A program made the position numbers and the translations under genes. The notes beneath the pieces are model-generated. The model was not told where the DNA came from, searched no databases, and saw nothing but the letters and a program-made list of their open reading frames with translations. A DNA stretch of 38,438 nt from a virus (Duplodnaviria; Heunggongvirae; Uroviricota; Caudoviricetes), in IMG/VR virus record IMGVR_UViG_2648501437_000025; one strand, 5' to 3'. Below, piece by piece: positions 1-38,438 of this stretch; within the stretch, counting starts at the first letter, position 1; each line of letters opens with the position of its first letter.

Positions 1-1980
1 GGCATTTACGGGAGAAAAAATCGGCTCAAACATGAAGAAATGAAATGACTGAGTCAGCCGAGAAGTATTTCCCCGCTTATTCGCACCTTCCCTAGCTCTC
101 TGCTGCTCCCGGGTCTGATATTGTTTTGAAAAAGCATCTGCTCTCTGTCTGAGTTCAATTCCTTCCTGTTGTCGCTTGTTGTAATCGTTTATTGATGAAT
201 TTAGTACGTCCTGAGCAATTTTTTCTGCTTGAAGTATGCCCAATTGCTGCTTTAATCGTGCCAGCTTTTTATTTTGAGCTCCGCCATCTCCAATGCCACC
301 TAACCCGAAAACTCCGGGTCGGATATTTTTTTCTATTTCATCAATTTGACGGAGAACATCTGAGATTTTTTGATCAAGGGAGGCCTCACGGCCAATATCC
401 AGCATGGAATCCCATGCCCATTTTGCGGAGTCTGCGACAGCTTTCCATGCAGTCTCAAGATAACCAAGATTTTCTTTAATCTGGTTGGTGCGCTGGATCA
501 TTGAGGATGAGTATGCTTCTGTCGCAATGCGGGCGGCCTCCTGCTGGTTCCCTTCATCCTGTAGCGCCTTAATCTGGTTATAAATCGCAAGTGTCAGAAA
601 ATGGTACTGATCATTAAGTTTTGATATAGCACTGACAGGATCCTTTGCAATTTCATTGAAGTCATTAACCAGTTGTTCGGTTGATATTCCTGTTACTTCG
701 CTCGTTTTTACTATCGCTGTCGTCACTTGCTCCAGCGAACTGCTCGCTACCTTTCCCGAACGCACAAGCTGGTTTAATACTGCCGCCGCAGCGCCAGTTG
801 TCGAATCAGCCGCATTCCCGGCACGTTGAGCTATATCGGCCAATTGCCCGCTGGTTGTCCCCAACTGATTTCCGGTAAGAATAAGAGATTTATTAAATTC
901 GTCCTGCTCCTGAGAGCCTTTATAGTAAGCCAGCCCTAAGACGCCAACGGCTGCTGCGGCCAGGGTAAAAGGATTAATTAATCCCAGCACATAAGAACCT
1001 ACACCTTTGATCGCCGGGCCAATCCCACCGAACATATCTTTTAGCTGGCCGCCCTGCTGCATTAACACCATAAATGGCGACTGACCAGTGGACAACCCAA
1101 CAACAATATCCGTCATTTGTGCAGGCAACATGCGCATAGCAAAAGCCGTTTGTTTTGCCGACATTCCGGTTTTGCTTAATTGCGATTGAGTAACCTCAAG
1201 CTCACTCCGCATAGCACGAAGTTTTCCAGAAAGCTCCTCATACATTTCAGGAGAAAGCATCCCCTTAGCTTTTGCTTCATTGAGCTGTTTCTGTTGTTCT
1301 ACCAGACGATTAAAAGCAGTTCCGACAGGATCAAGTTGAGCAATCAGACGTTGCAAAGCAGCAACCTGTTCATCATGTGCTTTTGCTGCTTCTCGCTCTG
1401 CCTGAGCCTCTCCGGTAAGCTCTCGCCGTGTTTCCTGTATTTTTCGGCTATAATTCTCAAACTGAGAACCATTTATTTTCCCGGATGCAAACGCAGCATT
1501 AAGTTCATCCTGCTGTTGTTCAAGATTTCTTAGCGCCGCAGCCAGAGGGTCGATCTTGTCCAGCATTCTTTGAAAGGCCTGAGCCTGCGCTTCCTGCTGG
1601 GCGGCAGCAAGTTTTCCAGCCTTCTCGGCTTCTCTCTGCGCTTGCGCAACCCCGCTCAATTCCTCTGTGGTTTCATTAAGTTTACGGACAAGAAATTCAT
1701 ATTCTTCTTTATCAATAAGCCCTTTATCGAAAAATTTCTTTAATTCAGAATAGCGTCGACCGACAGTATCAATTGCGGCACCAACTGGATCAATAGCTGC
1801 TTTTAATTTTGCGAGCGCGTTCTTCTCATCTTCTGTTGCCTTAGTCACTTTCCCTGCGCTATTTGCAGCAGTTTCCCCAGCCTGCGTCATTTTGACTAAT
1901 GAGGAGGTCAGATTGTCAGCATTATTTTTCGCTCCAGTGCTATCAATAATTATTGCGAGACGCGAGGTTTGCTCTGCCAT
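1..1980 (-). CDS. Tail tape measure protein, 5' part only (ORF runs off the window start)
   Basis: Minus-strand ATG at 1978-1980 preceded by AGGAG; my translation of the first ~100 codons is Ala/Leu/Lys/Glu-rich and coiled-coil-like ([40 protein letters not shown]...); position directly downstream of the tail chaperone pair. Absence from the complete-ORF track is consistent with the frame staying open to position 1; I did not translate the full length. Confidence 0.7.
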
Positions 1981-2000
1981 TTATTAAAACTCCTGACAAC

Positions 2001-2020
2001 AAAAAACCCACCGAAGTGGG
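2001..2020 (-). terminator. Hairpin with cUUCGg loop followed by U-run on the minus strand, between tail chaperone and tape measure genes
   Basis: Plus strand aaaaaa-cccac-cgaa-gtggg; on the minus strand this is a GC stem with UUCG loop followed by U6, immediately upstream of the tape measure RBS. Confidence 0.45.
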
Positions 2021-2143
2021 TTTCAGGCGACATAATAGTAGAAATAGCGATTACGAGGCCACGCAATGCTTTTCTCCAGGAGCATCATCGATTTAATTAA
2101 AGACACCATCACATCTCTGTAACAGAGTGTACGTAATTAACAA

Positions 2144-2466
2144 CTACACACACTGCTCCTGAAAATACTGGTCATCCAGTGCAAAGATCACTGCTTCAAA
2201 TTCATCGCGCTCAATCAATACCGGATGAGTGGCTAAATATTCATTTATCTCTGTCAGAGATAAAGGCAAAGGCACCCCAGTCATTCCAGCATAACGTCGG
2301 GCACGGGATATTACCGAATAGGCGTACAACAATTCCTTAAGCACCGGGTCTATTTCTGGTTCCGGTATCGGTGGCAACCTGAGTTTTTCTCGCTTCCATC
2401 TTGCCTTTTCCCCCCTTTCTCCCCCGAACTCCGATAACCACCGTTGGGCGGCTATGGCTTTTTTAT
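2144..2466 (-). CDS. Tail assembly chaperone -1 frameshift extension (T portion of a G/GT pair)
   Basis: Frame open from the slippery site at the end of the upstream chaperone ORF through 2144; -1 frame relative to 2452..2913; no independent ATG or RBS. Confidence 0.6.
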
Positions 2467-2913
2467 CGTATCCTGCTTCTGCTGCTCTTTACCCTGGGCG
2501 ATGCTGGCTGCTTCTGCAAGGATCTGCCAGTACAACTCTGGATTCTGCTTAAGCAGCGCGATCCCTCGTTCTGGCGTATATTCCAGTGCAACCTCAACAC
2601 CATTAACCAGTTCACCAACCCCTTTCCAGTCTTTCAGCAGATAACGAGCGGCATTATCAATGAGTAAATCATCAACAGAATCCACCTCGGAAACCTTTGA
2701 AATATCAAACTCCTTCGTTCCGACGTGCAAACTGGCATCCATTTTCTCAATGTGGCGACGGATTAATGCATTACGGGAGCGATACTGATCGTTATCGCTG
2801 CTTGCCACCAACAGTTTTAACCCGTCTACAGGTTTTAAGTCCTTCATTGGCGTAAACCAGCGTTCTCCACCGATGATAATTTTCTGATTAAGAATAAACA
2901 TCCATAACCTCAT
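2452..2913 (-). CDS. Tail assembly chaperone (G-like)
   Basis: 153-aa ORF between major tail protein and tape measure; ends ...ATA AAA AAG CCA TAG, with the heptamer A AAA AAG in frame. Confidence 0.65.
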   Translation of the reverse strand: MRLWMFILNQKIIIGGERWFTPMKDLKPVDGLKLLVASSDNDQYRSRNALIRRHIEKMDASLHVGTKEFDISKVSEVDSVDDLLIDNAARYLLKDWKGVGELVNGVEVALEYTPERGIALLKQNPELYWQILAEAASIAQGKEQQKQDTIKKP

Positions 2914-2961
2914 TCAATGCGTCCCCCTGTAGTGCAGTACCACAGGGGGAATAACGGAAAA

Positions 2962-3924
2962 TCAACTAATCGCCTCAGCACTGGCTTTTGCGATCACGGC
3001 AGCCGGGGAGTTTTTTTTTCTGGTTATCGTAGGTGCTTCATCTGCTGCGGTAATGCTCAGTTGAACCTGGATAATGTCAGTATTACCACCGTCAGGCCAT
3101 TCACCTGACACCTGAACCTTCGGGAAACTGAAAGTGTATGCCCCCTCTCCATTCGAAAGCGTGAAGCTGAACGGAACTGTTTCTCCAGTCAGTGTTTTAC
3201 TCCAGATTTCCCACGCGGCTTTAGACCATGAAAGCGTCACCGTACCGGACGGTGTAAAAGTAGTCGGAATATTTGCTCCTGCATAAGGCGAGCCAGTCCC
3301 GATACAACGCTGTGTCTGGAGTTTGTTATCGAACTGAATATCAAAACTGTCGATACAAAAACCGTTACCTCCGGCAACACCATTCAGGCTTACTGCTGAA
3401 ACCTCCTTAAACGAATAACGTAGCTTTCCTGCACTATCCACAGGTTCGCCTTTGATAAAATTCGTATCATCGGCCTTTGATTCCCAGTCCAGTCCGGCAA
3501 AGGTTACGGTCGCTGTAATATCGCCGTCGTTAGGGATCTGCATTTTCCATGAGCCAACCTGCGCTCCTCTGACGACAGAGGCAATTCCGACATCGGACGC
3601 ATAGGTCGCCAGAGAAAATGTTATTCGCTCATTCCCCATTGTCAGAGAATCGCCTGACCATTCCGCGCCGAAACAGGATGCAAGAAAATCATCATGTTGA
3701 CCCCAGCGAAATTTGGTACCAACATCACCGCCGACATCCACAGTGCCAGGCGTCGCCCCCTGAGCCATCCGGGAGCCACCAATCTCATTATTTTCGCCTT
3801 TATTCTGGGTGGGTTTTACTCCCCAGCTTGTGCGTTTTAATAAACTCCAGTCACCACTTGCTGGCGTAGTGCCTGCAACCGTCTCCCGGATAAATGCCGA
3901 GATAACCTTTGCACCTGAACTCAC
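2962..3924 (-). CDS. Major tail (tube) protein
   Basis: 320-aa Gly/Thr/Ser-rich ORF upstream of the chaperone/tape measure genes; canonical siphovirus position. Confidence 0.6.
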   Translation of the reverse strand: MSSGAKVISAFIRETVAGTTPASGDWSLLKRTSWGVKPTQNKGENNEIGGSRMAQGATPGTVDVGGDVGTKFRWGQHDDFLASCFGAEWSGDSLTMGNERITFSLATYASDVGIASVVRGAQVGSWKMQIPNDGDITATVTFAGLDWESKADDTNFIKGEPVDSAGKLRYSFKEVSAVSLNGVAGGNGFCIDSFDIQFDNKLQTQRCIGTGSPYAGANIPTTFTPSGTVTLSWSKAAWEIWSKTLTGETVPFSFTLSNGEGAYTFSFPKVQVSGEWPDGGNTDIIQVQLSITAADEAPTITRKKNSPAAVIAKASAEAIS

Positions 3925-3950
3925 AGGAGCCTCCTATGTCATTAATTGCG

Positions 3951-4343
3951 CTAGAGCGCGCGATATGGAATTTGAAGATTAAGCTGGAACCAGCCATTCT
4001 TTTCGCCAACGGTTATTGAGGAAACAGCCTGGTAACTGAGACGGTCGTCATCCTGAAACTCAAACAGTTCCCGCAATTTATCGGCTGTCTCAGTAATGAG
4101 TTTTGAACCAGAACCTGCGGGGACAAATAACTGAATAATGATTATCCCCGTGCGATAAACAACCGGCCCCGCGCCAATTTCATTAACTCCAGCCTGCCCG
4201 GGAATATTACTTAACCGCGCCCAGATTAACTTACCGGAAGGATCGAACGTTGGCCCGTTCGGATACAATACGTCTTTTCCATTAATAACCGTCTGTGCCG
4301 TCATTCTGGAAATGACCGTATTTCTGATTTCAGTAAACGTCAT
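3951..4343 (-). CDS. Tail completion / tail terminator-like protein
   Basis: 130-aa ORF immediately upstream of the major tail gene; assignment by gene order. Confidence 0.4.
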   Translation of the reverse strand: MTFTEIRNTVISRMTAQTVINGKDVLYPNGPTFDPSGKLIWARLSNIPGQAGVNEIGAGPVVYRTGIIIIQLFVPAGSGSKLITETADKLRELFEFQDDDRLSYQAVSSITVGEKNGWFQLNLQIPYRAL

Positions 4344-4720
4344 TTGTAAGCCTGTAAAACACCATGAAAAGCGTTGGCATACACGCCAGTTGGCGCTTGT
4401 TGTGAATGACCGTTTTCAAGAGCCTCTGCATAAGGAAGGTTATTCTGGATATAAATAATTCCGTAATTTGCAGCTTTCGAAATAACCCCGATCCCACGCT
4501 GAACCGCAATCGTACCGTTCGGATCCACGTTATCAGATATACCAAAATCGGGATGCTGTAACGACACCATGTTGTTATTTCTGAAACGCCCGGTATCAAC
4601 CGGAGCAGCAATATCGATAGCAGTAAGAATCTGAATAGCGATGTAGCGAATTTTCAGCCCCACATCTTCCTCAATCATCCCGGCAAATATTGACGGTTCG
4701 ATATCCCATGCCTTTGCCAT
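4340..4720 (-). CDS. Head-tail joining / minor tail protein
   Basis: 126-aa ORF, stop/start overlap with neighbours in the structural operon. Confidence 0.4.
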   Translation of the reverse strand: MAKAWDIEPSIFAGMIEEDVGLKIRYIAIQILTAIDIAAPVDTGRFRNNNMVSLQHPDFGISDNVDPNGTIAVQRGIGVISKAANYGIIYIQNNLPYAEALENGHSQQAPTGVYANAFHGVLQAYK

Positions 4721-5107
4721 TTACGCTCTCCTTAACTGGATTGAGTAAACTGATGCGGAAGGATCTACACTCGCTGTAATTACCTCGTATCGTTGCAACT
4801 GCCTTGATACAGGATCATAAATCTCAATAATATGGCCGACAGCGGGTTTATCCGTAACCTCGCATACCAGAGCTGTTAATTTAAGGTCACCATGCAAAAT
4901 ATTAATCCCATCAATTCTGCCCAGCTTATAACGCGTCAACACGCCTCGCCCGGTATAGGTTGCTGTGGATTCGCCGCCAGTTTCCGTCACAGGATCCCAG
5001 TTCCGGTGCGTAACGTAAGAACCAGAAAAATCACTCACGGCGTCTGCTAAATCCTCATCAAAAGCAGCGGCAACCTCTGACTGAATCTCTTCACGAAGCC
5101 CCATCAT
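4721..5107 (-). CDS. Head-tail adaptor / head closure protein
   Basis: 128-aa ORF, tightly packed with flanking genes; assignment by gene order. Confidence 0.4.
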   Translation of the reverse strand: MMGLREEIQSEVAAAFDEDLADAVSDFSGSYVTHRNWDPVTETGGESTATYTGRGVLTRYKLGRIDGINILHGDLKLTALVCEVTDKPAVGHIIEIYDPVSRQLQRYEVITASVDPSASVYSIQLRRA

Positions 5108-5499
5108 CCCCCCCTCACAACCCTGACTTGTGAGCGACTAAGTCCGTACGGTTTCAGCAGTGCTATCGCAAGCTGTAAATCGGGTTCAAGCAATGCAGTG
5201 CTGTTTGCTGGCAATTCAGCAAATGATTTCGATACACTGACCCCGTCAGCCGACACGGTTTTACTGATAACAACGCCAGAATCATTTTTCTGCTGAAACA
5301 ACTTACCGACAGAGGCAATTCTGGCTGCATATGCTCCCGCAAGTTTTACCTCTTCCGGAATACGGGATGGGTTAATTTTCAGGCCGAAGCCATTAAGCCA
5401 GGCATTAGCCATTAAAACAGCTTTATTTTTAGCGTTCTCACTCGTCCAGGCGTTCCCAAACGCATTATCAACGTCATCACAGGTCACGTAAGTGATCAT
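5104..5499 (-). CDS. Head-tail connector protein (gp6-like)
   Basis: 131-aa ORF downstream of the capsid gene; N-terminal region resembles gp6-type connector proteins from memory. Confidence 0.45.
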   Translation of the reverse strand: MITYVTCDDVDNAFGNAWTSENAKNKAVLMANAWLNGFGLKINPSRIPEEVKLAGAYAARIASVGKLFQQKNDSGVVISKTVSADGVSVSKSFAELPANSTALLEPDLQLAIALLKPYGLSRSQVRVVRGG

Positions 5500-5502
5500 G
5501 TG

Positions 5503-5727
5503 TTACTCCTGAGTTTTCCAGCCCAGAGCCTTCCAGTTGTCAACTTCATCAGGATGAACATTAGCGATAGTTGGTGCGCAGGGAAACATCTGATAATCGG
5601 TCACCATAACCACTAACTCAATTTGCGTTTTTTGTGGCTCCTGAATTTGCTCCACATTTTGCTCCACCACTGCATTTTTTTGCGCGGCTTCACGCTGTGC
5701 TCTTTGCTCTTTAGTTAATCCGGCCAT
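5503..5727 (-). CDS. Small head-associated protein (function unknown)
   Basis: 74-aa ORF directly downstream of the major capsid gene. Confidence 0.35.
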   Translation of the reverse strand: MAGLTKEQRAQREAAQKNAVVEQNVEQIQEPQKTQIELVVMVTDYQMFPCAPTIANVHPDEVDNWKALGWKTQE

Positions 5728-5769
5728 ATACCCTCCATTAAAAATGGGGCCGAAGCCCCGTTTGGATGT

Positions 5770-6909
5770 TTAACCAAGAATCAGACAACCATGTGCCGGT
5801 TTCACTGACGAAACACCCCATGCCAGTCCAACTTCATAGCGCACCTGGCGATACTGACGATACAGTGCAATCTGGAACGTAATCCCTGAAATCGGGTCCG
5901 TAACATTCATTACATCATCAGCATTATCGCCACCTTCCGGCATTGCCGGAGTACGGGATGCCAGCAGAAACGCGTTGCGATCAAACGCCATATTTGCAGT
6001 AAAGGAGCCAACAACTGTGATTGCAGTATCATCGGCCAGATCCTGACGCAGTCCCGGTGCTGCAAGAGTAATCAGATTGCTGGTCGCTGCTGCCACAACA
6101 TACTGATTCGGATCGCCAGCGAACGTAACAATCTGACCTGCAGAAATACTCCCCGAACCTGTATCAATGGAAATAAGAACATCGCCTTCTTTTTTCTCGC
6201 CATTCACGAGATAACCAGTTGCTGCAACCTTTGGCGCTCGTTTTACACCTGCCGAACTGTGAATATTGAATCCCTCCAGACGCCCCAACACGCCCTCACG
6301 CAGTAGCTGTTCAGTGCCGGATTCATTCACTTTAAACAATACAGACTGTTTTCCGCGCAAATTAGCAATGGCAGTGGAACCAAGCACCATCTGCAGATCT
6401 GTTGTCGGTGCGCCGTTATCCTCCAGAACCTGACGAGCCAGAGCAGCATCAGAAAGATCATCTTTAACACCAAACGGCGTTGTCCCTGCGGTTCCCACGG
6501 CGCGGGAAGCACCGAAATACAACGCACCAAGATCAGCCTCAACCTCGTTTGCAAGGGCGCGAAAAGCCTGCTTGAACTGATCAGCCAGAATGGTGTTGTA
6601 AGTCCCTGAAGGGCCAAGAGCCAGTTGTTCTTCACCATTCCATTTAACCGGCGCCATTTTGGATTTAGTAATTTTTACATCAACAGTGCCAATATTTTGA
6701 TCACCGGTATTCGGAGCTGACGGCCCCGGTACGATATCTTCGGTTTTCGCCTCAGGCGCAACTGGCGCGGTTACCGTCTGATCTTTTGCTGCGGCGTCAG
6801 CTTTTGCGTTTTTTGCTACCGCAGGGATAAAACCTACCTGCTCACGGGATACAACATCCAGGGCGGTGTAAATAGTCGGGATCAACCCGGTCAGGGTATT
6901 TCCAGCCAT
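5770..6909 (-). CDS. Major capsid protein
   Basis: Long ORF in capsid position; start placed at ATG 6909 (MAGNTLTGL...) with AAGGA upstream; the ORF track extends to 7002. Confidence 0.6.
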   Translation of the reverse strand: MAGNTLTGLIPTIYTALDVVSREQVGFIPAVAKNAKADAAAKDQTVTAPVAPEAKTEDIVPGPSAPNTGDQNIGTVDVKITKSKMAPVKWNGEEQLALGPSGTYNTILADQFKQAFRALANEVEADLGALYFGASRAVGTAGTTPFGVKDDLSDAALARQVLEDNGAPTTDLQMVLGSTAIANLRGKQSVLFKVNESGTEQLLREGVLGRLEGFNIHSSAGVKRAPKVAATGYLVNGEKKEGDVLISIDTGSGSISAGQIVTFAGDPNQYVVAAATSNLITLAAPGLRQDLADDTAITVVGSFTANMAFDRNAFLLASRTPAMPEGGDNADDVMNVTDPISGITFQIALYRQYRQVRYEVGLAWGVSSVKPAHGCLILG

Positions 6910-7007
6910 AATTAAATATTCCTTAAAAATTTGCGTAATTGTGAATGGATTGAGTAGTGAGCTATCCAGCCCTGACACCAACTCCCATCCGGAAGCTGGC
7001 AAATGTA

Positions 7008-7772
7008 TTAATCAACGATTGTGATACCGTCTTTCAGTGCGTTTTGCTTACCTGCAACATCCAGTGCATCAAAAGCAGAGCGTTTCATCGTTTTCTGACC
7101 AATATCATGCTGTGTCGGACGGGAACCGCCGCCATTGTTGCCACTGGCTTTCAGGATGTAGTCTTTCTGAGGGTAATTTTCGACGAGGAACTCCAGCGCC
7201 TCATCAAACTGCGCCAGTTCTCCTGGCTTCGCGCGGGAATAAATTTTGTTGCCGGAAGCGTCATAAGCAACGATCTTCCCTTCTTCCACTTTGAATGCCT
7301 GTCCGAAGCGGGCTTGTAATAAATCTGCCGGGATCGCAATTTTATCGGCAATATATTTTGAACCTGCAAAACTACCGCCAATCATAGAATCGTAAAGCTG
7401 CTTCTCCAGCATCTGAGAGCGTTGCTTTTCTTCATCTAATTGCTGCTGAAAATTTTTCGTAATTTCTGCCTTAACCTGGTCAACCTGTCCCGCATCGATC
7501 AGCTTTTTCTGGTCGATTTTTGACAGCATTTCCAGTGCCTCAATCGCCTTCTTCGGGTCTTCGATAGCGGCAAACTTAGCCAGTTTTTCCTCTGCAGCTT
7601 CTTTAGCCAGGCGATGATTTTTTGCCTCGCCATTAAGCTCTGTAATTTTTTTTGTCGCCAGCGGTGCATCGAAGCCGATTTCTTTACCATCGTCGTGCAC
7701 ATAGACTGGCAGGCCAGCAGTATCAATTTCTGCGTATTGTTTTCCGTTAATCTCGACCGTTTTCAGTTTCAT
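7008..7772 (-). CDS. Putative head scaffolding protein
   Basis: ORF between the Mu-F-like head protein and the capsid gene; charged central region; start placed at ATG 7772 (MKLKTVEING...), alternative 7817. Confidence 0.4.
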   Translation of the reverse strand: MKLKTVEINGKQYAEIDTAGLPVYVHDDGKEIGFDAPLATKKITELNGEAKNHRLAKEAAEEKLAKFAAIEDPKKAIEALEMLSKIDQKKLIDAGQVDQVKAEITKNFQQQLDEEKQRSQMLEKQLYDSMIGGSFAGSKYIADKIAIPADLLQARFGQAFKVEEGKIVAYDASGNKIYSRAKPGELAQFDEALEFLVENYPQKDYILKASGNNGGGSRPTQHDIGQKTMKRSAFDALDVAGKQNALKDGITIVD

Positions 7773-7832
7773 ATTAGTACCTGGTTTAAGTCTTCCGACA
7801 GTTGCGCTGCTCACCATCCGGATCGCAGCAAT

Positions 7833-7856
7833 AAAAAAGGCCCCCCGAAGGGGGCC
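7833..7856 (-). terminator. GC-rich hairpin with UUCG-type loop plus U-run, between head morphogenesis and scaffold genes
   Basis: Plus strand aaaaaa-ggcccccc-gaag-ggggcc; on the minus strand a GC stem followed by U6. Confidence 0.45.
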
Positions 7857-7876
7857 TGTTGTAATAAATGATTTAT

Positions 7877-29949: not shown

Positions 29950-29970
29950 TGATCTTGCTATCACAGTAAT

Positions 29971-29994
29971 ATGCCAATCAGCCCGCTATCAGCG
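29971..29994 (+). terminator. Intrinsic terminator after the repressor gene
   Basis: gcccgc-tatca-gcgggc hairpin followed by T7. Confidence 0.6.
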
Positions 29995-30041
29995 GGCTTT
30001 TTTTGTACCATCATCATATGACACGCCACCATAAAAACACA

Positions 30042-30076
30042 TTTTGTGTTGACATACAAAAACCCTTTGTGTTTAA
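30042..30076 (+). promoter_or_regulatory. PL-like early-left promoter with operator repeats
   Basis: TTGACA, 17-nt spacer, TTTAAT, overlapped by two TTTGTGTT repeats also present in the 29434-29529 region. Confidence 0.5.
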
Positions 30077-30251
30077 TAAGCATATCCAAACAACGCCCCA
30101 CCGGAGAACGGCAGGACAATACCTCGAGTTATCCAGCCACTGAACAGGGCTAAGTAGCCAGCCTGAGGCATACGAACATGACGGCAGTTGTTGATTGATA
30201 CAAAGCGCAGTAGATAAAACGTTCCGCCACCCGGCGTTAAGGGGAAAAAAG

Positions 30252-30386
30252 ATGGTGCATTACGAAGTAGTTCAGTATTTGATGGATTGTTGCGGTATCA
30301 CTTACAGCCAGGCTGTGCAGGCTTTACGTAGCAACGACTGGGATCTCTGGCAAGCAGAAGCCTCTATCCGCAACAACAAGATGTGA
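30252..30386 (+). CDS. ydaG: YdaG-like small protein (44 aa)
   Basis: MVHYEVVQYLMDCCGITYSQAVQALRSNDWDLWQAEASIRNNKM; ATG at 30252 with AAGGGG RBS; matches Rac gene order. Confidence 0.55.
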   Translation: MVHYEVVQYLMDCCGITYSQAVQALRSNDWDLWQAEASIRNNKM

Positions 30387-30396
30387 GGTGCGAAAA

Positions 30397-30552
30397 ATGC
30401 AAAAAATCGACCTCGGCAATAACGAATCCATGGTGTGCGGCGTGTTCCCCAACCAGGATGGAACGTTCACCGCCATGACTTATACCAAAAGCAAAACATT
30501 TAAAACCGAAACTGGTGCGCGCCGATGGTTGGAGAAGCACACAGTAAGCTAA
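30397..30552 (+). CDS. ydaF: YdaF-like small protein (51 aa)
   Basis: My translation: MQKIDLGNNESMVCGVFPNQDGTFTAMTYTKSKTFKTETGARRWLEKHTVS; RBS GAGGTG; below the track cutoff. Confidence 0.5.
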   Translation: MQKIDLGNNESMVCGVFPNQDGTFTAMTYTKSKTFKTETGARRWLEKHTVS

Positions 30553-31004
30553 CGATTAAAACGTCTACTCCTGCTGTTCCAGAATAACTTCATAAAATGG
30601 GAGTATTTTTCGGTGACGAGATAATAAGAACAGTTTGCGCTATCACTCTGATGTTGAATGATGCCCTTCCGTTCTAATTTTTTCATAACCGGGTTACGGC
30701 AAGGAGAAGTGATAATAAGATTTCCTGTTTTAAGGAAATCTTTAAATACAGCGATTTCTTTCTCAGATAAACGAAGCAACACTCGTTGCTCTGGTAGTAA
30801 TGAATAATGCTTTTGAATATGTGCTCGCAATCTTGAGAAGGAAATGGCGACCACGAAAGAAAAGGCAAAAACGATAATCTGAAAGAGCCAAGGTATTTCA
30901 GTATAAGCATTGAATGCGACAGTAAACTCTTTCGGTATCAGCCAGAGAGTGAGACCAAAAATGATAATCGTATACATAAGTCTTTCGATGTGGCTCGTTA
31001 GCAA
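30549..31004 (-). CDS. sieB: Superinfection exclusion protein SieB-like (membrane)
   Basis: Two N-terminal hydrophobic segments, opposite orientation to the flanking early genes as in Rac. Confidence 0.55.
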   Translation of the reverse strand: MLTSHIERLMYTIIIFGLTLWLIPKEFTVAFNAYTEIPWLFQIIVFAFSFVVAISFSRLRAHIQKHYSLLPEQRVLLRLSEKEIAVFKDFLKTGNLIITSPCRNPVMKKLERKGIIQHQSDSANCSYYLVTEKYSHFMKLFWNSRSRRFNR

Positions 31005-31468
31005 AAAGTTTCAACAATGGAGTAAATACATCCAACATATCAATAACTCTCAACTGTAAGGGTATTGAAATGTTAACACAAGCTCTCGCTGTAGGGGTAT
31101 AGCCGAGACCACCGAAGCCCGGAGGTGGTGAAATAAAACTGGGCGCAACACGAAGGCGCATTTCCGATATCCATAAAGAGTCGGTCTTGTCTGTTAAATT
31201 TAAATGGTGGGAGTGCGCCTCCGGTTGTAAATAACGACATTGCTGTGTGTAGTCTTGGCGGCATCAGTTTTTTCTTGAAGTTCGGCTGATGTCCGCCCTT
31301 TTTAAAGTGAATTTTGTGATGCGGTGAATGCGGCTAAGCGCACGCGGAACAGTTAAAAGCATCAGTGTTATGGGTGGATTATCCGGCGTTAATTGTTAAC
31401 TGGTTAACGTCACCTGGAGGCACCAGGCACCGCATCAACAAAGTTCATTTGTGAAAATGGAGATAATT

Positions 31469-31690
31469 ATGATTGCTCATCACTTCGGAACTGATGAAAT
31501 ACCTCGTCAGTGTGTGACTCCTGGTGATTATGTTCTTCATAACGGCCGGACATATATTGCCTCGGCAAACAATATTAAAAAGCGAAAGCTTTATATTCGT
31601 AACCTGACCACAAAAACATGCATTACTGACTGCATGATTAAAGTCTTCCTCGGTCGTGATGGTTTACCTGTAAAGGCGGAGTCATGGTGA
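31469..31690 (+). CDS. kilR: KilR cell-division inhibitor
   Basis: [46 protein letters not shown]... near-identical to Rac KilR as I remember it; GGAG RBS. Confidence 0.8.
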
Positions 31691-31860
31691 TGACTAAGAA
31701 AATAAAATGTGCTTACCACCTTTGCGATAAAGAAGTTAAAGAAAGCAAAAGCATTAAAAGACCACTTCATTTCATGCGTGGAGTTATCCCAACGACGGAA
31801 ATGAAAAAATATTGTAGTGAAATATGTGCCGAAAAAGACCAGATGGCACACGAACTTTAA
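31684..31860 (+). CDS. ydaE: YdaE-like small Cys-rich (zinc-binding) protein
   Basis: My translation: [58 protein letters not shown]; overlaps the kilR stop. Confidence 0.55.
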
Positions 31861-31934
31861 TTAACTGACTATGCGAAACTGAATTTATGCCAGCAATGGC
31901 AGGGATTCGCTCAACCTTAATTAAGGAGAAAAAC

Positions 31935-32210
31935 ATGATTACCAGTTATGAAGCCACTGTTGTAACTACTGATGACATTGTTCACGAAGTTAATCTGGAA
32001 GGAAAGCGTATTGGCTACGTGATTAAAACAGAAAATAAAGAAACCCCATTCACTGTGGTTGATATCGACGGTCCATCAGGCAACGTTAAAACACTTCACG
32101 AAGGTGTCAAAAAAATGTGCCTGGTGCATACCGGAAAGAATCTGCCCGCAGAAAAAAAAGCCGAATTTCTGGCAACTCTAATTGCAATGAAATTAAAAGG
32201 TGAAATCTGA
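31935..32210 (+). CDS. racC: RacC-like protein
   Basis: MITSYEATVVTTDDIVHEVNLEGKRIGYVIKTENKETPF...; AAGGAG RBS; directly upstream of recE as in Rac. Confidence 0.65.
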   Translation: MITSYEATVVTTDDIVHEVNLEGKRIGYVIKTENKETPFTVVDIDGPSGNVKTLHEGVKKMCLVHTGKNLPAEKKAEFLATLIAMKLKGEI

Positions 32211-32311
32211 AAGAAATAGCCTGCGTATGGCGCAGGCTATGAACAGTGTGTATCCGGCAAGATCATTCACTGAACAAAACGAATTTTAATCTGAGTTGAG
32301 GTTAAAAAACA

Positions 32312-35300
32312 ATGAGCACAAAACCACTCTTCCTGTTACGGAAAGCGAAAAAATCATCCGGTGAACCTGACGTCGTCCTGTGGGCAAGCAACGATTTTGA
32401 ATCGACCTGTGCCACTCTGGACTACCTGATCGTTAAGTCAGGTAAAAAACTGAGCAGCTATTTTAAAGCTGTTGCCACGAATTTTCCTGTCGTTAATGAC
32501 CTGCCCGCTGAAGGTGAGATCGATTTTACCTGGAGTGAACGCTATCAACTCAGCAAAGACTCCATGACATGGGAACTAAAACCGGGAGCAGCACCAGACA
32601 ACGCTCACTATCAAGGCAATACCAACGTCAACGGCGAAGACATGACTGAGATTGAGGAGAATATGCTACTCCCAATTTCTGGCCAGGAACTGCCCATTCG
32701 TTGGCTTGCTCAACACGGCAGCGAAAAACCGGTAACGCACGTTTCACGCGACGGACTCCAGGCATTATACATTGCTCGGGCTGAAGAACTACCGGCTGTT
32801 ACTGCCCTGGCTGTTTCCCACAAAACCAGCCTGCTCGACCCGCTGGAAATTCGCGAACTCCACAAACTGGTTCGTGACACTGACAAAGTTTTCCCTAATC
32901 CTGGTAATTCAAACCTGGGACTGATAACTGCTTTTTTCGAAGCATACCTGAACGCTGACTACACCGATCGAGGACTGCTGACAAAAGAGTGGATGAAGGG
33001 TAATCGTGTTTCACACATCACTCGCACGGCTTCCGGTGCTAATGCTGGCGGCGGAAACCTCACCGATCGCGGCGAAGGTTTCGTACACGATCTGACGTCA
33101 CTGGCGCGCGACGTAGCCACTGGCGTACTGGCCCGTTCAATGGATCTGGACATCTATAACCTTCATCCGGCACACGCTAAACGCATTGAGGAAATTATCG
33201 CTGAAAATAAACCGCCCTTTTCTGTTTTCCGCGACAAATTCATCACCATGCCTGGCGGGCTGGATTATTCCCGCGCCATCGTGGTTGCGTCCGTAAAAGA
33301 AGCACCAATTGGGATCGAGGTCATCCCCGCGCACGTCACTGAATATCTGAACAAAGTACTGACTGAAACCGATCATGCCAACCCTGATCCGGAAATCGTG
33401 GATATTGCCTGCGGTCGCTCCTCTGCCCCGATGCCGCAGCGAGTAACAGAAGAAGGAAAACAGGATGATGAAGAAAAACCGCAACCATCTGGAACAACGG
33501 CAGTTGAACAGGGAGAGGCTGAAACAATGGAACCGGACGCAACTGAACATCATCAGGACACGCAGCCGCTGGATGCTCAGTCACAGGTAAATTCTGTTGA
33601 TGCGAAATATCAGGAACTGCGGGCAGAACTCCATGAAGCCCGAAAAAACATTCCATCAAAAGATCCTGTCGATGCCGATAAATTGCTTGCTGCATCACGT
33701 GGTGAATTTGTTGACGGAATTAGCGACCCGAACGATCCGAAATGGGTAAAGGGGATCCAGACTCGCGATTGTGTGTACCAGAACCAGCCAGAAACGGAAA
33801 AAACCAGCCCGGATATGAATCAACCTGAGCCAGTAGTGCAACAGGAACCGGAAATAGCCTGCAATGCCTGCGGCCAGACTGGCGGGGATAACTGCCCTGA
33901 CTGTGGTGCGGTGATGGGCGACGCAACATACCAGGAAACATTCGATGAAGAGAGTCAGGTTGAAGCTAAGGAAAATGATCCGGAGGAAATGGAAGGCGCT
34001 GAACATCCGCACAATGAGAATGCTGGCAGCGATCCGCATCGCGATTGCAGTGATGAAACTGGTGAAGCGTCAGCTCCTGTAGCAACTGAAATCATGTGGC
34101 CGTCATATTTCGAGCCTGGCCGCTATGAAAACCTCCCGAACGAGGTTTATCACTCCGCCAACGGAATAAGCAGCACGATGCTGAAGGATGCCCGTATCAG
34201 CCTGATGTATTACCATGGACGGCACATTGCCGGAACTATTCCGAACGAGGAAAGTGATGCACTGCTGCGTGGGCGGATCATTCACAGCTATGTTCTGGAA
34301 ACGGATAAATTCGCTGATGAATATGCCATTCCGGTACCGGTTCCTGAATATGTGGTTACTACTTCTAACGAACTGATCGCCATCATTAAAAAACACAATG
34401 CCAGTCTGCCAGCACTGATGACACCAGAGCAGATGAAAGAGTGGATCGAAAGCTACAACAGCACTCTTATACAGCCACTGTCTGTAAGTGCCGGGGCCGA
34501 AGAAACAGGCATCCTTTACGGTTCGCTTCCGGTGGAATTTCGGCGTATTCCTGAGGGGGAAAAACACACAGCATCAGCAATGAAAGCCTGTATTAAAGAA
34601 TACAACGCAAGCCTCCCTCCTCTGTTGAAAACCAGTGGAGCACGGGAGCAGCTTCTGGATCAAATTGAAACTGTAGCCCCAGAACTAGCAAAAAAAGAAC
34701 GTGCTAAATCTTTGCCTTACAACATCAGTGGCACAAAAGAGCAATTAACCGAAATCGCACGGCAAATTCGCCCGGAACTGGTGACTCTGGAGGACTGGCA
34801 AAAACGCCAGCAAGAAGAAAACGCCGGGAAAACGTTTATCAGTCCGGATATGTATGAACAGGCAAAAAATATTCACGCGGCACTACAAAACAGTACCGAT
34901 GCAGCAAGGTTACTCAACCACCCGGATCGCAAATCTGAAATCAGCTATTTCGGGTTTGATGAAGAAACCGGGCTGGAAATCAGGGTCCGTCCTGATATCG
35001 AAATCCGGCTGCCATACGAAAGCATTTGCGCTGACGTGAAGTCAGTCAGCCTCGGTTATGTGCGACAGGAACGACTTAAAGATCGCCTGCACCGTGAAAT
35101 TATTGAACGTGATTATCATCTCAGCGCCGCAATGTATTGCGATGTGGCAAACCTGGACAAATTTTTCTGGATCTTCGTCAACAAAGATGCTGGCTATCAC
35201 TGGGTGGCAGTCGTGGAAGCCTCGCAGGAACTCCTGGAACTTGGTCGACAGGAATATCGCCGGACGCTACGCCAGATAAACGAAGCCCTGGAGACAAACA

Positions 35301-35383
35301 ACTGGCCAGCACCGATTACCGAAAGTTATACCGACGAATTAAACGACTTTGATCTTCGTCGTCTTGAAGCACTGAGCATCTGA
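32312..35383 (+). CDS. recE: RecE-like exonuclease VIII (long form, 1023 aa)
   Basis: C-terminal part carries acidic/hydrophobic segments consistent with a PD-(D/E)XK nuclease domain of RecE type; acidic low-complexity middle region; followed by an annealing-protein gene. Confidence 0.8.
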
Positions 35384-35394
35384 GGAAGGACACA

Positions 35395-36447
35395 ATGAAC
35401 GAATTAACTCAACAAGAAAATATTAACTCTAATGTTGCGGTTTTCAGCCCTCAGTCCCTGGCTGCAATTCAGACATTTTCCCAGGTAATGGCTTCCGGCA
35501 TGGCTACTGTACCGGAACACCTCCGGGGAAATCCATCAGACTGCATGGCCATCACCATGCAGGCGATGCAGTGGCAAATGAACCCTTACGCAGTAGCTCA
35601 GAAAACTTTCGTTGTGAATGGTGTGCTCGGATATGAAGCGCAACTGGTTAATGCCGTAATCAGTACTCGTGGGCCGCTAACCGGGCGTATTGAATATGAC
35701 TGGTTCGGGCCGTGGGAAAAAATTATCGGGAAATTTGAAATCAGGAAGAGCGACAAAGGGAAAGAATATCGTGTACCTGGCTGGAAGCTGGCCGATGAAA
35801 ACGGGATCGGTGTTCGTGTCCAGGCAACACTACGCGGCGAAAGTAAACCACGCGTACTGGAATTACTTCTGGCGCAGGCCAGAACACGTAACTCAACGCT
35901 ATGGGCCGACGATCCTCGCCAGCAGCTTGCCTATCTGGCGCTGAAACGCTGGGCGCGCCTTTATTGCCCCGAAGTGATTCTTGGAGTGTACACCAGGGAC
36001 GAACTGGACGAGCCACAGGAAAAAATCATTAATCCGGTTCAGGAACATAAAAACACTTCCGCTTGCCGCGCTGAACGTGAAACAACAATTATTGAGCAGG
36101 ATGCCGGGGAAAACTGGATCGATGCTTTCCGTGAACGTATTGAGCAGGCACAAAGCACCGGGGAAACAACAGCACTTCGCCAGGAAGTGGAAGATCATAA
36201 AAATACACTTGGCGCTCTCTATACGGAACTTAAAGGAAAAGTGGTTCAGCGTCATCACCGTCTCAATGCTATTGCCCGTATCGAGAAGATGATAAATGAC
36301 CTACCTTCTTCAGGTGATCCAGAAGCAGAACAAAAATTTACTGCTCTGGAAAATACGCTGAATGCTGCCCGGCCACATCTGGGTGAATTATATGAGGCGT
36401 ATAAAACGACACTGACAGATATGAAACCAGAATATATCGGCTCCTGA
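35395..36447 (+). CDS. RecT/Redbeta-family single-strand annealing protein
   Basis: N-terminal region (AITMQAMQWQMNPYAVAQKTFVVNGVLGYEAQLVNAVI) resembles the Redbeta/RecT annealing-domain layout; paired with recE. Confidence 0.6.
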   Translation: MNELTQQENINSNVAVFSPQSLAAIQTFSQVMASGMATVPEHLRGNPSDCMAITMQAMQWQMNPYAVAQKTFVVNGVLGYEAQLVNAVISTRGPLTGRIEYDWFGPWEKIIGKFEIRKSDKGKEYRVPGWKLADENGIGVRVQATLRGESKPRVLELLLAQARTRNSTLWADDPRQQLAYLALKRWARLYCPEVILGVYTRDELDEPQEKIINPVQEHKNTSACRAERETTIIEQDAGENWIDAFRERIEQAQSTGETTALRQEVEDHKNTLGALYTELKGKVVQRHHRLNAIARIEKMINDLPSSGDPEAEQKFTALENTLNAARPHLGELYEAYKTTLTDMKPEYIGS

Positions 36448-36510
36448 TATTGACTTTGGCGGTGTAGCCTCACCGCCATCACAAAATTTTATTTTATGAG
36501 AGAAAAGACA

Positions 36511-36705
36511 ATGCGGTATGAAAAAGTCAAACCATGCCCTTTTTGTGGTTGTCTATCAGTAACGGTAAAAGCCATTTCAGGATATTACCGCGCGAAGTGT
36601 AACGGATGCGAATCCCGAACCGGCTATGGTGGAAGTGAAAAAGAAGCACTCGAACGATGGAATAAACGAACCACTGGAAGTAATAATGGAGGTGTTCATG
36701 TATAA
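36511..36705 (+). CDS. ralR: RalR (Lar) restriction-alleviation protein / type I toxin
   Basis: MRYEKVKPCPFCGCLSVTVKAISGYYRAKCNGCESRTGYGGSEKEALERWNKR... matches Rac RalR from memory. Confidence 0.75.
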   Translation: MRYEKVKPCPFCGCLSVTVKAISGYYRAKCNGCESRTGYGGSEKEALERWNKRTTGSNNGGVHV

Positions 36706-36886
36706 AATTACCGCCACTATTGAAAAGGAAGGTGGCACTCCTACTAACTGGACAAGGTACTCAAAAACAAAATTAACCAAATCAGAATGCGAAAAAATGC
36801 TCTCAGGTAAAAAAGAAGCAGGCGGTTCCAGAGAGCAGAAAGTAAAACTGATAAATTTTAATTGCGAGAAACTTCAGTCGTCGTGA
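36698..36886 (+). CDS. ydaC: YdaC-like protein
   Basis: MYKITATIEKEGGTPTNWTRYSKTKL...; ATG overlaps the ralR 3' end, preceded by GGAGG. Confidence 0.55.
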   Translation: MYKITATIEKEGGTPTNWTRYSKTKLTKSECEKMLSGKKEAGGSREQKVKLINFNCEKLQSS

Positions 36887-36985
36887 ATTGCATTGTATTC
36901 AAATTAAAACTTCATAGCTGATTATTAATAATCAACATCGGGCGTCAATTTCAGTCTAACATTGGCGCCTGCCAGAGGTGATGCG

Positions 36986-37201
36986 ATGGCACAAGTAATC
37001 TTTAATGAAGAGTGGATGGTTGAATACGGCCTGATGCTTCGCACTGGTCTGGGGGCCAGACAAATTGAAGCATACCGCCAGAACTGTTGGGTGGAAGGCT
37101 TCCACTTCAAACGAGTATCTCCTTTAGGTAAGCCAGACAGCAAACGAGGGATTATCTGGTACAACTATCCAAAGATAAATCAGTTTATCAAAGACTCATG
37201 A
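36986..37201 (+). CDS. xisR: Excisionase
   Basis: [66 protein letters not shown]; directly upstream of int with 1-nt spacing. Confidence 0.75.
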
Positions 37202-37202
37202 T

Positions 37203-38438
37203 ATGTCTAAATTACCAACAGGTGTCGAGATTAGAGGTAGATACATTCGCATCTGGTTCATGTTTCGAGGAAAACGATGTCGGGAAACATTAAAAGGCTG
37301 GGAGATTACAAACAGTAATATTAAAAAGGCCGGAAATTTAAGAGCGCTGATAGTTCATGAAATAAACTCCGGTGAATTTGAGTATTTAAGACGTTTTCCC
37401 CAGTCCAGCACTGGGGCAAAAATGGTGACAACGAGAGTCATAAAAACGTTCGGAGAGCTTTGTGATATCTGGACAAAAATTAAAGAGACAGAGTTAACAA
37501 AAAACACAATGAAGAAAACGAAATCACAATTAAAAACACTCAGAATAATAATTTGTGAAAGTACCCCGATATCACATATTCGTTATAGCGATATCTTAAA
37601 CTACCGGAATGAACTGCTGCATGGAGAAACGCTTTACCTGGATAATCCAAGATCCAACAAAAAAGGAAGAACCGTGCGCACAGTTGATAACTATATCGCC
37701 CTGCTCTGTTCGCTGTTGCGTTTTGCGTATCAGTCGGGATTTATATCAACCAAACCATTTGAAGGAGTAAAAAAATTACAGCGAAACAGAATAAAGCCTG
37801 ATCCGTTATCTAAAACAGAATTCAATGCATTAATGGAAAGTGAAAAAGGACAGAGCCAGAACTTGTGGAAATTTGCCGTTTACTCAGGACTTCGTCACGG
37901 GGAACTGGCAGCTCTGGCGTGGGAGGATGTGGATCTCGAAAAGGGAATAGTGAATGTCAGAAGAAACCTGACGATACTTGATATGTTCGGTCCCCCAAAA
38001 ACAAATGCCGGGATCCGAACAGTAACACTACTGCAGCCTGCTCTTGAAGCACTGAAGGAGCAATACAAACTGACCGGGCATCATCGCAAAAGCGAAATCA
38101 CCTTTTATCATCGGGAGTACGGCAGAACCGAAAAGCAAAAACTGCATTTTGTTTTCATGCCCAGGGTGTGTAACGGAAAACAAAAACCTTATTACTCGGT
38201 AAGCAGTTTGGGGGCAAGGTGGAATGCAGCAGTAAAACGTGCTGGTATTCGCCGCCGTAATCCGTACCATACGCGGCATACTTTTGCCTGCTGGCTGTTG
38301 ACGGCAGGAGCGAACCCGGCATTTATAGCCAGCCAAATGGGGCATGAAACTGCGCAGATGGTGTATGAAATTTACGGTATGTGGATTGATGACATGAACG
38401 ACGAACAGATAGCCATGTTGAATGCGCGGTTATCGTAG
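37203..38438 (+). CDS. intR: Tyrosine integrase (lambda Int family)
   Basis: 411-aa ORF with C-terminal catalytic region (...RHTFACWLLTAGANPAFIASQMGHETAQMVYEIYGMW...); stop codon is the last triplet of the window. Confidence 0.9.
   Translation: MSKLPTGVEIRGRYIRIWFMFRGKRCRETLKGWEITNSNIKKAGNLRALIVHEINSGEFEYLRRFPQSSTGAKMVTTRVIKTFGELCDIWTKIKETELTKNTMKKTKSQLKTLRIIICESTPISHIRYSDILNYRNELLHGETLYLDNPRSNKKGRTVRTVDNYIALLCSLLRFAYQSGFISTKPFEGVKKLQRNRIKPDPLSKTEFNALMESEKGQSQNLWKFAVYSGLRHGELAALAWEDVDLEKGIVNVRRNLTILDMFGPPKTNAGIRTVTLLQPALEALKEQYKLTGHHRKSEITFYHREYGRTEKQKLHFVFMPRVCNGKQKPYYSVSSLGARWNAAVKRAGIRRRNPYHTRHTFACWLLTAGANPAFIASQMGHETAQMVYEIYGMWIDDMNDEQIAMLNARLS

Follow-up and report, generated by a model that had tools for sequence, protein, structure and literature searches.

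IS5 in the tail tape-measure gene of a Rac-family lambdoid prophage

The DNA analyzed here comprises 38,438 nucleotides of the Caudoviricetes record IMGVR_UViG_2648501437_000025; this whole stretch is called the window below. It ends with the stop codon of intR (37203-38438), whose product is 99.8% identical to K-12 IntR, and the preceding gene, xisR (36986-37201), encodes a protein 100% identical to K-12 XisR, so that the two form a Rac-type integration module. The ttcA gene lies about 50 bp after int in N1420, ECSC054, and K-12, and by analogy with such relatives IntR/XisR would be expected to integrate this element at ttcA. The same plus strand carries ydaG (30252-30386), ydaF (30397-30552), kilR (31469-31690), ydaE (31690-31860), racC (31935-32210), recE together with a RecT-family gene (32312-36447), the ralR toxin gene (36511-36705), and an rcbA/ydaC-like ORF (36698-36886). 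Two features are on the minus strand: the RalA antisense sRNA (36704-36882; Rfam, 212.5 bits) and sieB (30549-31038). The latter is frameshifted after codon 16, with K-12 SieB aligning in two frames, and the copy in N1420 is also marked as frameshifted (PGAP). RecE (1023 amino acids) is 84% identical to its K-12 counterpart over residues 1-734, whereas its C-terminal PD-(D/E)XK domain belongs to another type (29% identity). K-12 RecT had no match in the window, and a RecT-family protein of 350 amino acids (PF03837) stands in its place.

The putative immunity switch consists of an HTH_3 repressor gene (139 amino acids; 29530-29949, plus strand) and a Cro-like HTH gene (80 amino acids; 29191-29433, minus strand). 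They are separated by a divergent regulatory region (29434-29529) with three TGTGTTT(T/A)A-like repeats, which by inference are candidate operators. Neither K-12 RacR nor YdaS gave a tblastn match in the window. N1420 shares this repressor/Cro pair, and thus RacR/YdaS represents an immunity type rather than a family marker. A domain scan of the repressor detected HTH_3 and no S24 peptidase domain; induction would therefore need another route. Beyond the Cro-like gene, the minus strand encodes CII-like YdaT (28772-29194), YdaU (27902-28759), DnaC-like YdaV (27149-27895), and a full-length DUF1627 protein, YdaW (26383-27177).

Further along the minus strand is a group of accessory early genes for Ead/Ea22-like, DUF551, DUF7167, zinc-ribbon, and other proteins (23383-26426). 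It is followed by a low-GC two-gene cassette encoding a 98-amino acid ORF (22878-23174) and a 300-amino acid legumain/caspase-like protein (21950-22852), the hokD/sok type I toxin-antitoxin (21554-21856; sok, Rfam 99.9 bits), and a 59-amino acid ORF (21166-21345) upstream of a Doc/Fic toxin gene (20662-21156; Fic/DOC Pfam match). Genes for a DUF1367 protein (19555-20154), a YbcO nuclease (19265-19555), and a Q-like antiterminator (DUF1133, phrog_753; 18732-19268) come next. As an aside, we regard the mobile caspase-like cassette as more interesting than the prophage itself.

Three tRNA genes, for tRNA-Gly(TCC), tRNA-Thr(TGT), and tRNA-Arg(TCG), were detected at 18252-18484 by ARAGORN and Rfam, again on the minus strand. 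The lysis cassette contains the holin EssD (17356-17571), the endolysin RrrD (16859-17356), and Rz (16398-16874) with Rz1/rzoR embedded in it (16457-16642). Between the lysis and packaging genes lies trkG (14803-16260), a K+ transporter moron 99.2% identical to K-12 TrkG, over which (15-16 kb) the GC content drops.

Adjacent to trkG, an intact gene for a ParB_N-like protein of 263 amino acids (13874-14665) overlaps a second minus-strand ORF (12949-13902) whose product is a TAGT/GREB1-related GT-A glycosyltransferase-like protein (PF20691, 6.5e-35; phrog_842, 9e-104). The latter belongs to TAGT (PF20691) by its family HMM match, its GT-A fold matches in PDB, and an R...DDD...ED motif in which R14, D102-104, and E188-D189 are invariant, as described for TAGT enzymes (bioRxiv 10.1101/2023.12.21.572611). 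This family of DNA-glycosylating GT-A enzymes includes the T2/T6 beta-glucosyl-HMC-alpha-glucosyltransferase and JGT. The contexts of six distant homologues were examined: the ParB-like gene is directly upstream of the TAGT gene in all six, and in five of them terminase genes come right after the pair. Between contexts, these terminases represent several different Pfam families. One of the six contexts adds a nucleotide-sugar epimerase/dehydratase. No pathway for a hydroxymethyl-pyrimidine acceptor (TET/5mYOX with a C5-MTase, or a ThyS-like hydroxymethylase) was found among the window ORFs scanned. The pair might be a conserved two-gene module for late-expressed glycosylation of phage DNA, or of a protein involved in packaging or present in the virion, in phages lacking a 5hmC/5hmU pathway, with K-12 ynaK, which corresponds to the first 86 codons of the ParB-like gene, as its decayed remnant; we put this forward tentatively and consider it doubtful. 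The conserved occurrence of the pair just upstream of terminases is, in our view, of more interest than the prophage in which it was found.

The remaining minus-strand genes encode packaging, head, and tail functions. After a small ORF (12762-12971/13013), the terminase small (11664-12758; Terminase_2) and large (10382-11683; Terminase_6N/6C) subunits match phrog_51 and phrog_309. The head genes encode a DUF4055 protein in the portal position (8973-10379), a head-morphogenesis/minor head protein (7877-8992), a scaffold-like DUF6651 protein (7008-7772), and a P22-type major capsid protein (5770-6909), and these proteins (5770-10379) are 98-100% identical to those of N1420. A 74-amino acid ORF (5503-5727) is 16 residues longer than in N1420. 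PHROG matches identified the head-tail adaptor (5104-5499), head closure (4721-5107), tail completion/Neck1 (4340-4720), tail terminator (3951-4343), and tail tube (2962-3924) proteins. The tail assembly chaperone G, a YdaY homologue that terminates at 2452, and T, which extends it through a -1 frameshift, span 2144-2913 (phrog_313, 8e-47), and frame analysis revealed an intact slippery site, A_AAA_AAG, at 2464-2458. Apart from the tape-measure gene and the one longer small ORF, the late genes tested equal those of N1420 in length (94-100% identity), and the terminase, portal, capsid, connector, tail tube, G/G-T chaperone, and lysis genes are full-length, as in relatives annotated as intact.

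The tape-measure gene is not uninterrupted. Only its 5' part (92-1980, minus strand; codons 1 to about 630 of 1077) is present, and tblastn showed 99% identity to the N1420 tape-measure protein over residues 1-631. When the frame is read past base 92, the translation of positions 1-91 is not tape-measure sequence. These 91 bp are the terminal part of IS5, with the inverted repeat ...GCTTATTCGCACCTTCC ending at base 91, and are followed by CTAG, the 4-bp IS5 target site (YTAR), at 92-95. Positions 1-110 are multi-copy, in unrelated contexts, in 1,916 E. coli genomes. The IS5 end is collinear with positions 1389-1479 of the ECSC054 locus (L006), which lie just downstream of a gene annotated as IS5 transposase, and the whole IS5 there spans 285-1479. 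Two complete E. coli genomes, ECSC054 (NZ_AP024112) and 19KM1803 (NZ_CP151017), have the identical junction, covering window positions 1-110 completely at 99.1% identity. In both, the transposase adjoins, both IS5 flanks are CTAG, and beyond IS5 the tape-measure gene resumes with its 3' part, followed by the M-L-K-I-J genes; among the genomes with this junction, one tail-fibre gene is annotated as partial. The window itself holds only 91 bp of IS5 and the first CTAG; the rest of IS5, with its transposase and second CTAG, and the tape-measure 3' part lie outside. With tape-measure proteins of the lambda type, tail assembly cannot start without the C-terminal part. IS5 at codon 630 of 1077 would cut off this part, and tape-measure function is thus predicted to be lost; transcription of the distal tail genes would probably be disturbed as well.

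To compare the element with K-12 Rac (NC_000913.3, 1411899-1434958), the whole window was aligned to it. In total, 12,683 of the 38,438 bases aligned, forming five collinear blocks with 95-99% identity: 96-99% for the early-left operon and integration genes and 95% for ydaT-ydaW, with the blocks of the collinear early-left operon and ydaT-ydaU-ydaV at 95-98%. The gene order is the same, and K-12 Rac is located at ttcA, like the close relatives of the window. The order listed in the first-pass annotation is borne out on both strands (29530-38438 on plus, 29433 down to 26383 on minus, and sieB opposite to its neighbors), although that list omitted recT, for which a RecT-family gene is present. 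The trkG and ParB-like segment, Q-like gene, three tRNAs, holin/endolysin/Rz/Rz1, terminase subunits, portal, and capsid are likewise present. At the protein level, IntR, XisR, RalR/RalA, RcbA, RacC, KilR, YdaE, YdaF, YdaG, YdaT, YdaU, YdaV, and TrkG are 91-100% identical to K-12 (YdaE, 73%). This likeness does not extend to the repressor/Cro pair, which is not homologous to racR/ydaS; K-12 Rac has RacR/YdaS immunity, another RecE nuclease domain, and another RecT. In addition, two stretches of the window are missing from K-12 Rac: 2804-14411, with the packaging, head, and proximal tail genes, and 16843-26676, which holds the endolysin, holin, tRNAs, Q, and nin-like genes. Both joints map exactly, at 2803/14412 and 16842/26677, each with 2-bp microhomology, and these two deletions explain K-12 ydaW, ynaK, and ydaY as chimeric ORFs fused at the joints. 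A third deletion in K-12 starts at tape-measure codon 312 and extends into lom; K-12 ynaA matches the first 312 tape-measure codons (99%).

Full-size Rac-like prophages at ttcA with the same architecture occur in natural E. coli and include those of strains N1420, 042, and APEC O1, the GenBank phage records vB_EcoS-683R6 and Rac-SA53, Sp10, CP-933R, and KingRac, the last likened to the window by description and not by sequence; such prophages, one of them (KingRac) reportedly active, have already been described (PMC5917428, PMC4632033, PMC6731689). The window differs from them in its IS5-cut tape-measure gene, its extra tRNA-Arg, and its accessory block (21874-26422), which includes the caspase-like cassette. 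ECSC054, despite the identical junction, has IS1 in terL, RacR/YdaS immunity, a K-12-type recT, and an IteAS defence pair replacing the accessory block. Many genomes match 98% of the late region (88-20000) at 98-98.6% identity, and at least 80% of this region is present in 680 of the 5,426 complete E. coli genomes. In contrast, none of the complete E. coli genomes searched carries the right half as this exact mosaic (best coverage in one place, 75%). The order of int/xis, recombination, repressor/Cro, CII-like, O/P-like, Q, lysis, packaging, head, and tail genes is that of lambda, as are the G/G-T -1 frameshift in the tail chaperone and, in the relatives of the window, the tape-measure gene followed by M-L-K-I-J. 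Unlike lambda, the window has a P22-type capsid, a T4-type TerL fold, a DUF4055 portal, and a repressor without an S24 peptidase domain, and no N homologue was identified in it.

Based on these observations, the window very probably represents the greater part of a full-length lambdoid prophage of the Rac family that is defective through IS5 in its tape-measure gene. The first-pass annotation had instead proposed an apparently intact, potentially inducible Rac-type temperate phage, which would produce infectious virions. Every other visible late gene is full-length, no damage is apparent in the G/G-T frameshift site, lysis cassette, terminase, portal, or capsid, and KingRac shows that an active Rac-like phage exists, albeit one for which mitomycin C induction was weak (PMC6731689). 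"Intact" is nevertheless wrong, as IS5 splits the tape-measure gene at 91/92; the annotation had itself named damage to an essential morphogenesis gene as what would refute it, and inducibility as claimed falls with it. Nor is the tail module complete as stated: the window begins inside an IS5 end, and everything distal to the cut, like the att sites, falls outside. The repressor without an autocleavage domain also argues against an intact phage, although an S24 repressor is not strictly a defining feature, since induction by another route is conceivable. Taken together, we give this reading almost no credence.

From the window alone, a simple IS5 insertion looks the same as a deletion or rearrangement bounded by IS5. 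Deletions next to the element are a common consequence of IS5 activity. The visible end might thus mark a larger deletion or inversion, with the distal tail genes (M, L, K, I, J, and fibres) absent or elsewhere and the element a more deeply truncated remnant, all the more as K-12 Rac carries IS5 in lomR and is itself deleted from tape-measure codon 312 to within lom. Both complete genomes with the identical junction, on the other hand, show a simple insertion with duplicated CTAG and M-L-K-I-J following, which makes a larger rearrangement quite improbable, if slightly less so than an intact phage.

The layout of this prophage is lambdoid. It begins with genes for integration and recombination, the kil/sieB region, and the divergent switch of repressor and Cro, continues with ydaT (CII-like) and ydaU/ydaV (O/P-like), and then has nin-like accessory genes, with toxin-antitoxins and morons as cargo. 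Next come the Q-like antiterminator, the tRNAs, and the lysis cassette, then the trkG moron and the ParB-like/TAGT pair, and last the terminase, a head of the P22 type, and a non-contractile tail like that of lambda. Full-length prophages of the Rac type are a well-known and common kind, and the finding is in this respect an ordinary one. The element may still be repressed, excise, replicate, kill or lyse its host, and fill heads. Co-resident prophages can rescue defective lambdoid prophages by recombination; infectious tailed virions would not be expected here unless IS5 were lost precisely or tail genes were acquired by recombination with a co-resident lambdoid prophage. As for the suggestion that the element is ancestor-like, its architecture agrees, the two K-12 deletions having exact joints in the window, but the element is a mosaic, heteroimmune to K-12 Rac, and not its literal ancestor. 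K-12 Rac is very probably a further-decayed relative of the same architecture that arose via illegitimate deletions.

The prophage has a lambdoid layout, in the orientation opposite to that of K-12 Rac. Cro-like, replication, accessory, Q-like, tRNA, lysis, trkG, packaging, head, and tail genes lie on the minus strand from ~29.4 kb down to base 92, and the repressor, early-left operon, recE/recT, ralR, xis, and int lie on the plus strand from 29.5 kb to the window end. GC skew is negative over the first 29 kb and mostly zero or positive beyond ~29 kb, a change that fits this two-strand division of genes. The last base of the int ORF (37203–38438) is the last base of the window, and a minus-strand ORF is open across the left end. 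Rfam matches included RalA antisense to ralR/rcbA, sok adjoining hokD, and three tRNAs. Among the latter, tRNA-Arg(TCG) (18408–18484) is an extra gene beside tRNA-Thr and tRNA-Gly; the related elements N1420, ECSC054, and vB_EcoS-683R6 have only Thr and Gly.

Pfam and PHROG profiles identified holin, endolysin, Rz, and Rz1, a Q-like antiterminator, TerS (Terminase_2) and TerL (Terminase_6N/6C), a DUF4055 protein at the portal position, a head-morphogenesis protein, a scaffold-like protein, a P22-type capsid protein, and the adaptor, head closure, Neck1, tail terminator, tail tube, and tail chaperone. All late genes tested other than the tape-measure gene have the lengths found in the Escherichia coli N1420 prophage (94–100% identity), apart from one small ORF that is longer by 16 aa. 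The small ORF in the capsid-adaptor interval (5503–5727) encodes 74 aa; its counterparts in relatives and the PHROG profile are 58 aa long, a size difference caused by a 48-bp in-frame insertion. The chaperone gene has a slippery site, A_AAA_AAG (2464–2458), in the correct phase, at which a -1 shift gives a ~105-codon extension (G/G-T). In the early region, sieB has a frameshift after codon 16; this gene is dispensable for lytic growth. The repressor consists of an HTH alone and lacks the S24 domain, so RecA-mediated cleavage as in lambda would not be expected.

The tape-measure translation matches the 1077-aa N1420 protein up to residue ~630 and then runs into unrelated sequence, and nucleotide identity with relatives begins at base 92. 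Across 1,916 E. coli genomes, window 1–110 occurs in up to 42 copies per genome, in unrelated genes and on plasmids. Bases 75–91 are the terminal inverted repeat of IS5, and bases 92–95 are CTAG, the IS5 target. The identical junction was detected in two complete genomes, ECSC054 and 19KM1803, in both of which the PGAP annotation splits the tape-measure gene into two pseudogene fragments with an IS5 transposase in between, and M-L-K-I-J come next. The window itself stops short of the distal tail genes and the att sites. The IS5 copy in ECSC054 is 1,195 bp long with CTAG on either flank. A breakpoint at base 88, taken from the extent of a tblastn match, was rejected because the nucleotide alignment and the IS5 inverted repeat place it at 91/92. 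No exact match to the IS5/tape-measure junction was found in viral contigs. Judging from this junction, the tape-measure gene is broken by IS5. The first-pass annotation had described an apparently intact prophage, and such an insertion is the kind of lesion that it had itself regarded as contradicting that description. What it observed is largely right; its reading of the element as intact and potentially inducible is wrong, the tape-measure gene being cut by IS5. An element of which just 91 bp are seen, at the edge of the window, very probably disables a prophage whose genes, taken one by one, look complete.

Alignment of the window with K-12 Rac (blastn against NC_000913.3, 1409000–1437500) yielded five collinear blocks, together 12,683 of 38,438 bases: 1046–2803 (ynaA/ydaY, 99.2% identity), 14412–16842 (ynaK-trkG-rzoR, 98.1%), 26677–29200 (ydaW-ydaV-ydaU-ydaT, 95.2%), 30094–34081 (ydaG to the N-terminal part of recE, 96.1%), and 36457–38438 (ralR-rcbA-xisR-intR, 98.0%). 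The similarity to Rac therefore extends beyond a few genes, and the gene order proposed earlier agrees with that of K-12, except that recT had been left off the list. Protein identity to K-12 is 99.2% for TrkG, 99.8% for IntR, 100% for XisR, 98% for YdaU, 96% for YdaT and YdaV, 96% for KilR, and 97% for RacC.

K-12 RacR, YdaS, and RecT had no match in the window. RecE is 84% identical to its K-12 counterpart over residues 1–734, whereas its C-terminal nuclease domain is only 29% identical. In place of K-12 RecE/RecT, the window encodes a 1023-aa RecE with a DUF3799 PD-(D/E)XK domain and a 350-aa RecT-family protein. By these alignments, the window and K-12 have different alleles of the immunity region and of half the recombination module. 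The prophage next to ttcA in N1420 (NZ_CP176489) has the same repressor/Cro pair and recE/recT type as the window. The interval that separates the divergently transcribed repressor and Cro-like genes (29434–29529) contains three TGTGTTT(T/A)A-like repeats: a direct pair, 23 bp from each other, and an inverted copy. From short repeats alone, these are plausible candidate operators for this immunity type. A promoter scan gave signal at background level.

The ParB_N-like (ParB-like) gene (13874–14665) overlaps a gene for a 310–317-aa TAGT/GREB1-related GT-A glycosyltransferase-like protein (TAGT), the pair occupying 12949–14665 on the minus strand. TAGT matches PF20691 (6.5e-35) and phrog_842, "beta-glucosyl-HMC-alpha-glucosyltransferase" (9e-104), and its family has >7,900 matches with 60–84% identity across genera. 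The invariant residues R14, D102–D104, and E188–D189 agree with the R...DDD...ED(Y/F) active-site motif of DNA-glycosylating phage GT-A enzymes and trypanosome JGT (bioRxiv 10.1101/2023.12.21.572611). A sequence search of the PDB returned nothing for TAGT, and PADLOC gave no match. The AlphaFold model (mean pLDDT 66.7) is mostly above 85 in its N-terminal half and unreliable in its C-terminal half; with that limit, the predicted structure matches GT-A transferases in the PDB.

The pair recurs in distant phages: in all six distant contexts compared (L012, L013, L014, L095, L096, and L097), a ParB-like gene lies directly upstream of TAGT, and in five of them the pair is immediately upstream of terminases, whose Pfam domains differ. 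One of the six adds a nucleotide-sugar epimerase/dehydratase. A related-locus search of viral contigs recovered only near-identical Rac-type loci. Genes of a 5hmC/5hmU pathway (TET, C5-methyltransferase, ThyS-like) were not seen in the window. The same preprint (10.1101/2023.12.21.572611) mentions ParB-like and terminase neighbors of orphan glycosyltransferases in passing, and our literature search found no functional study. In full-length Rac-type prophages, RefSeq/PGAP lists the full 263-aa ParB-like ORF as a partial "ynaK" pseudogene (25786–26576 of the N1420 locus). This label was rejected, as the ORF has no interruption and is the same in both the window and N1420; the label probably stems from naming after the truncated K-12 ynaK.

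N1420 lacks the accessory block (21874–26422), and no genome matched more than ~60% of it; for the right half, no complete E. coli genome matched >75%. The block contains Ea22-like, DUF551, DUF7167, and zinc-ribbon genes. Separately, a Doc/Fic toxin gene and a small ORF upstream of it occupy 20662–21345. Within a low-GC (36%) stretch of the block is a two-gene cassette (21950–23174, minus strand) encoding a 98-aa ORF and a 300-aa legumain/caspase-like protein (21950–22852) with weak legumain/Peptidase_C13 similarity. The cassette had no PHROG or PADLOC match. The 300-aa protein has 237 homologs (45–77% identity) in Enterobacterales, Vibrio, Pseudomonas, Burkholderia, and Xanthomonas. The Pseudomonas copy is beside a prophage integrase, the Yersinia copy within a myovirus tail module, and another E. 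coli copy at the same Rac-type position; in these three contexts a homologous 92–98-aa ORF precedes the caspase-like gene, with 45–48% identity between genera. The contig with the closest caspase-like gene (L011) has a mosaic that differs from the window. Occurring with its paired ORF at three different genomic positions, the cassette behaves as a mobile moron. It is possibly a defense or toxin-antitoxin pair. Both this cassette and the ParB-like/TAGT pair are cheap leads for screens of phage DNA modification and defense.

The sister prophages carry other cargo at equivalent positions: a QueH-like gene in N1420, which also has the cdtA toxin gene just past the tail-fiber genes (1–300 and 33990–34655 of its locus), and the IteAS anti-phage pair in ECSC054, with sitABCD adjacent (22812–26205 of its locus). 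Full-size Rac-like elements at ttcA are known and common, and one is reported active. O157 Rac elements keep replication machinery and can infect K-12 (Liu et al.). Full-sized Rac-like prophages with LT-II toxin genes have been described by Jobling (PMC5917428), who took RacR/YdaS/YdaT as cI/Cro/cII equivalents. Frazao et al. (PMC6731689) described the Rac-like prophage KingRac, 46.8 kb long and located at ttcA; it displaces K-12 Rac in the mouse gut and forms tailed particles, with weak mitomycin C induction. The GenBank phage records vB_EcoS-683R6 and Rac-SA53 also have large parts in common with the window. To this known kind the window contributes a new mosaic combination and a defect.

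The alignment also shows a route from the full architecture to K-12 Rac. K-12 is without window 2804–14411 (11.6 kb) and 16843–26676 (9.8 kb), and the neighboring blocks abut in K-12, indicating that both segments are simply missing there. The former takes in the beginning of the tail chaperone gene, the genes for the tail tube, connector, head, terminase, and TAGT, and the larger part of the ParB-like gene. In the latter are the Rz start, the endolysin, holin, and tRNA genes, the Q-like gene, the nin-like genes, and the DUF1627 end. The exact joints are at window 2803/2804, 14411/14412, 16842/16843, and 26676/26677 and at 16630/16631 and 14201/14202 of the K-12 locus, with 2-bp microhomologies, TT and TA. 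Microhomology at joints is expected for illegitimate recombination. A third deletion in K-12 joins tape-measure codon 312 to lom. Among 5,426 complete genomes, the K-12-type joints occur in 335 and 348, and the full late region (at least 80%, ~98% identity) in 680. The prophage had been called ancestor-like, which holds for its architecture, into which the K-12 deletion joints map, but not for this particular mosaic.

These joints explain several K-12 genes. K-12 ydaW is codons 1–151 of the DUF1627 gene fused to Rz-internal sequence, ynaK is the ParB-like gene (263 aa) reduced to its 86 N-terminal codons, ydaY is the final 116 codons of tail chaperone G, and ynaA is tape-measure codons 1–312. 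On this sequence comparison, none of five K-12 ORFs is an original gene: ydaW, ynaK, and ydaY are chimeras or remnants left at the deletion joints, and ynaA and rzpR are what is left of truncated phage genes. Caution is therefore due before reading these five as genuine genes.
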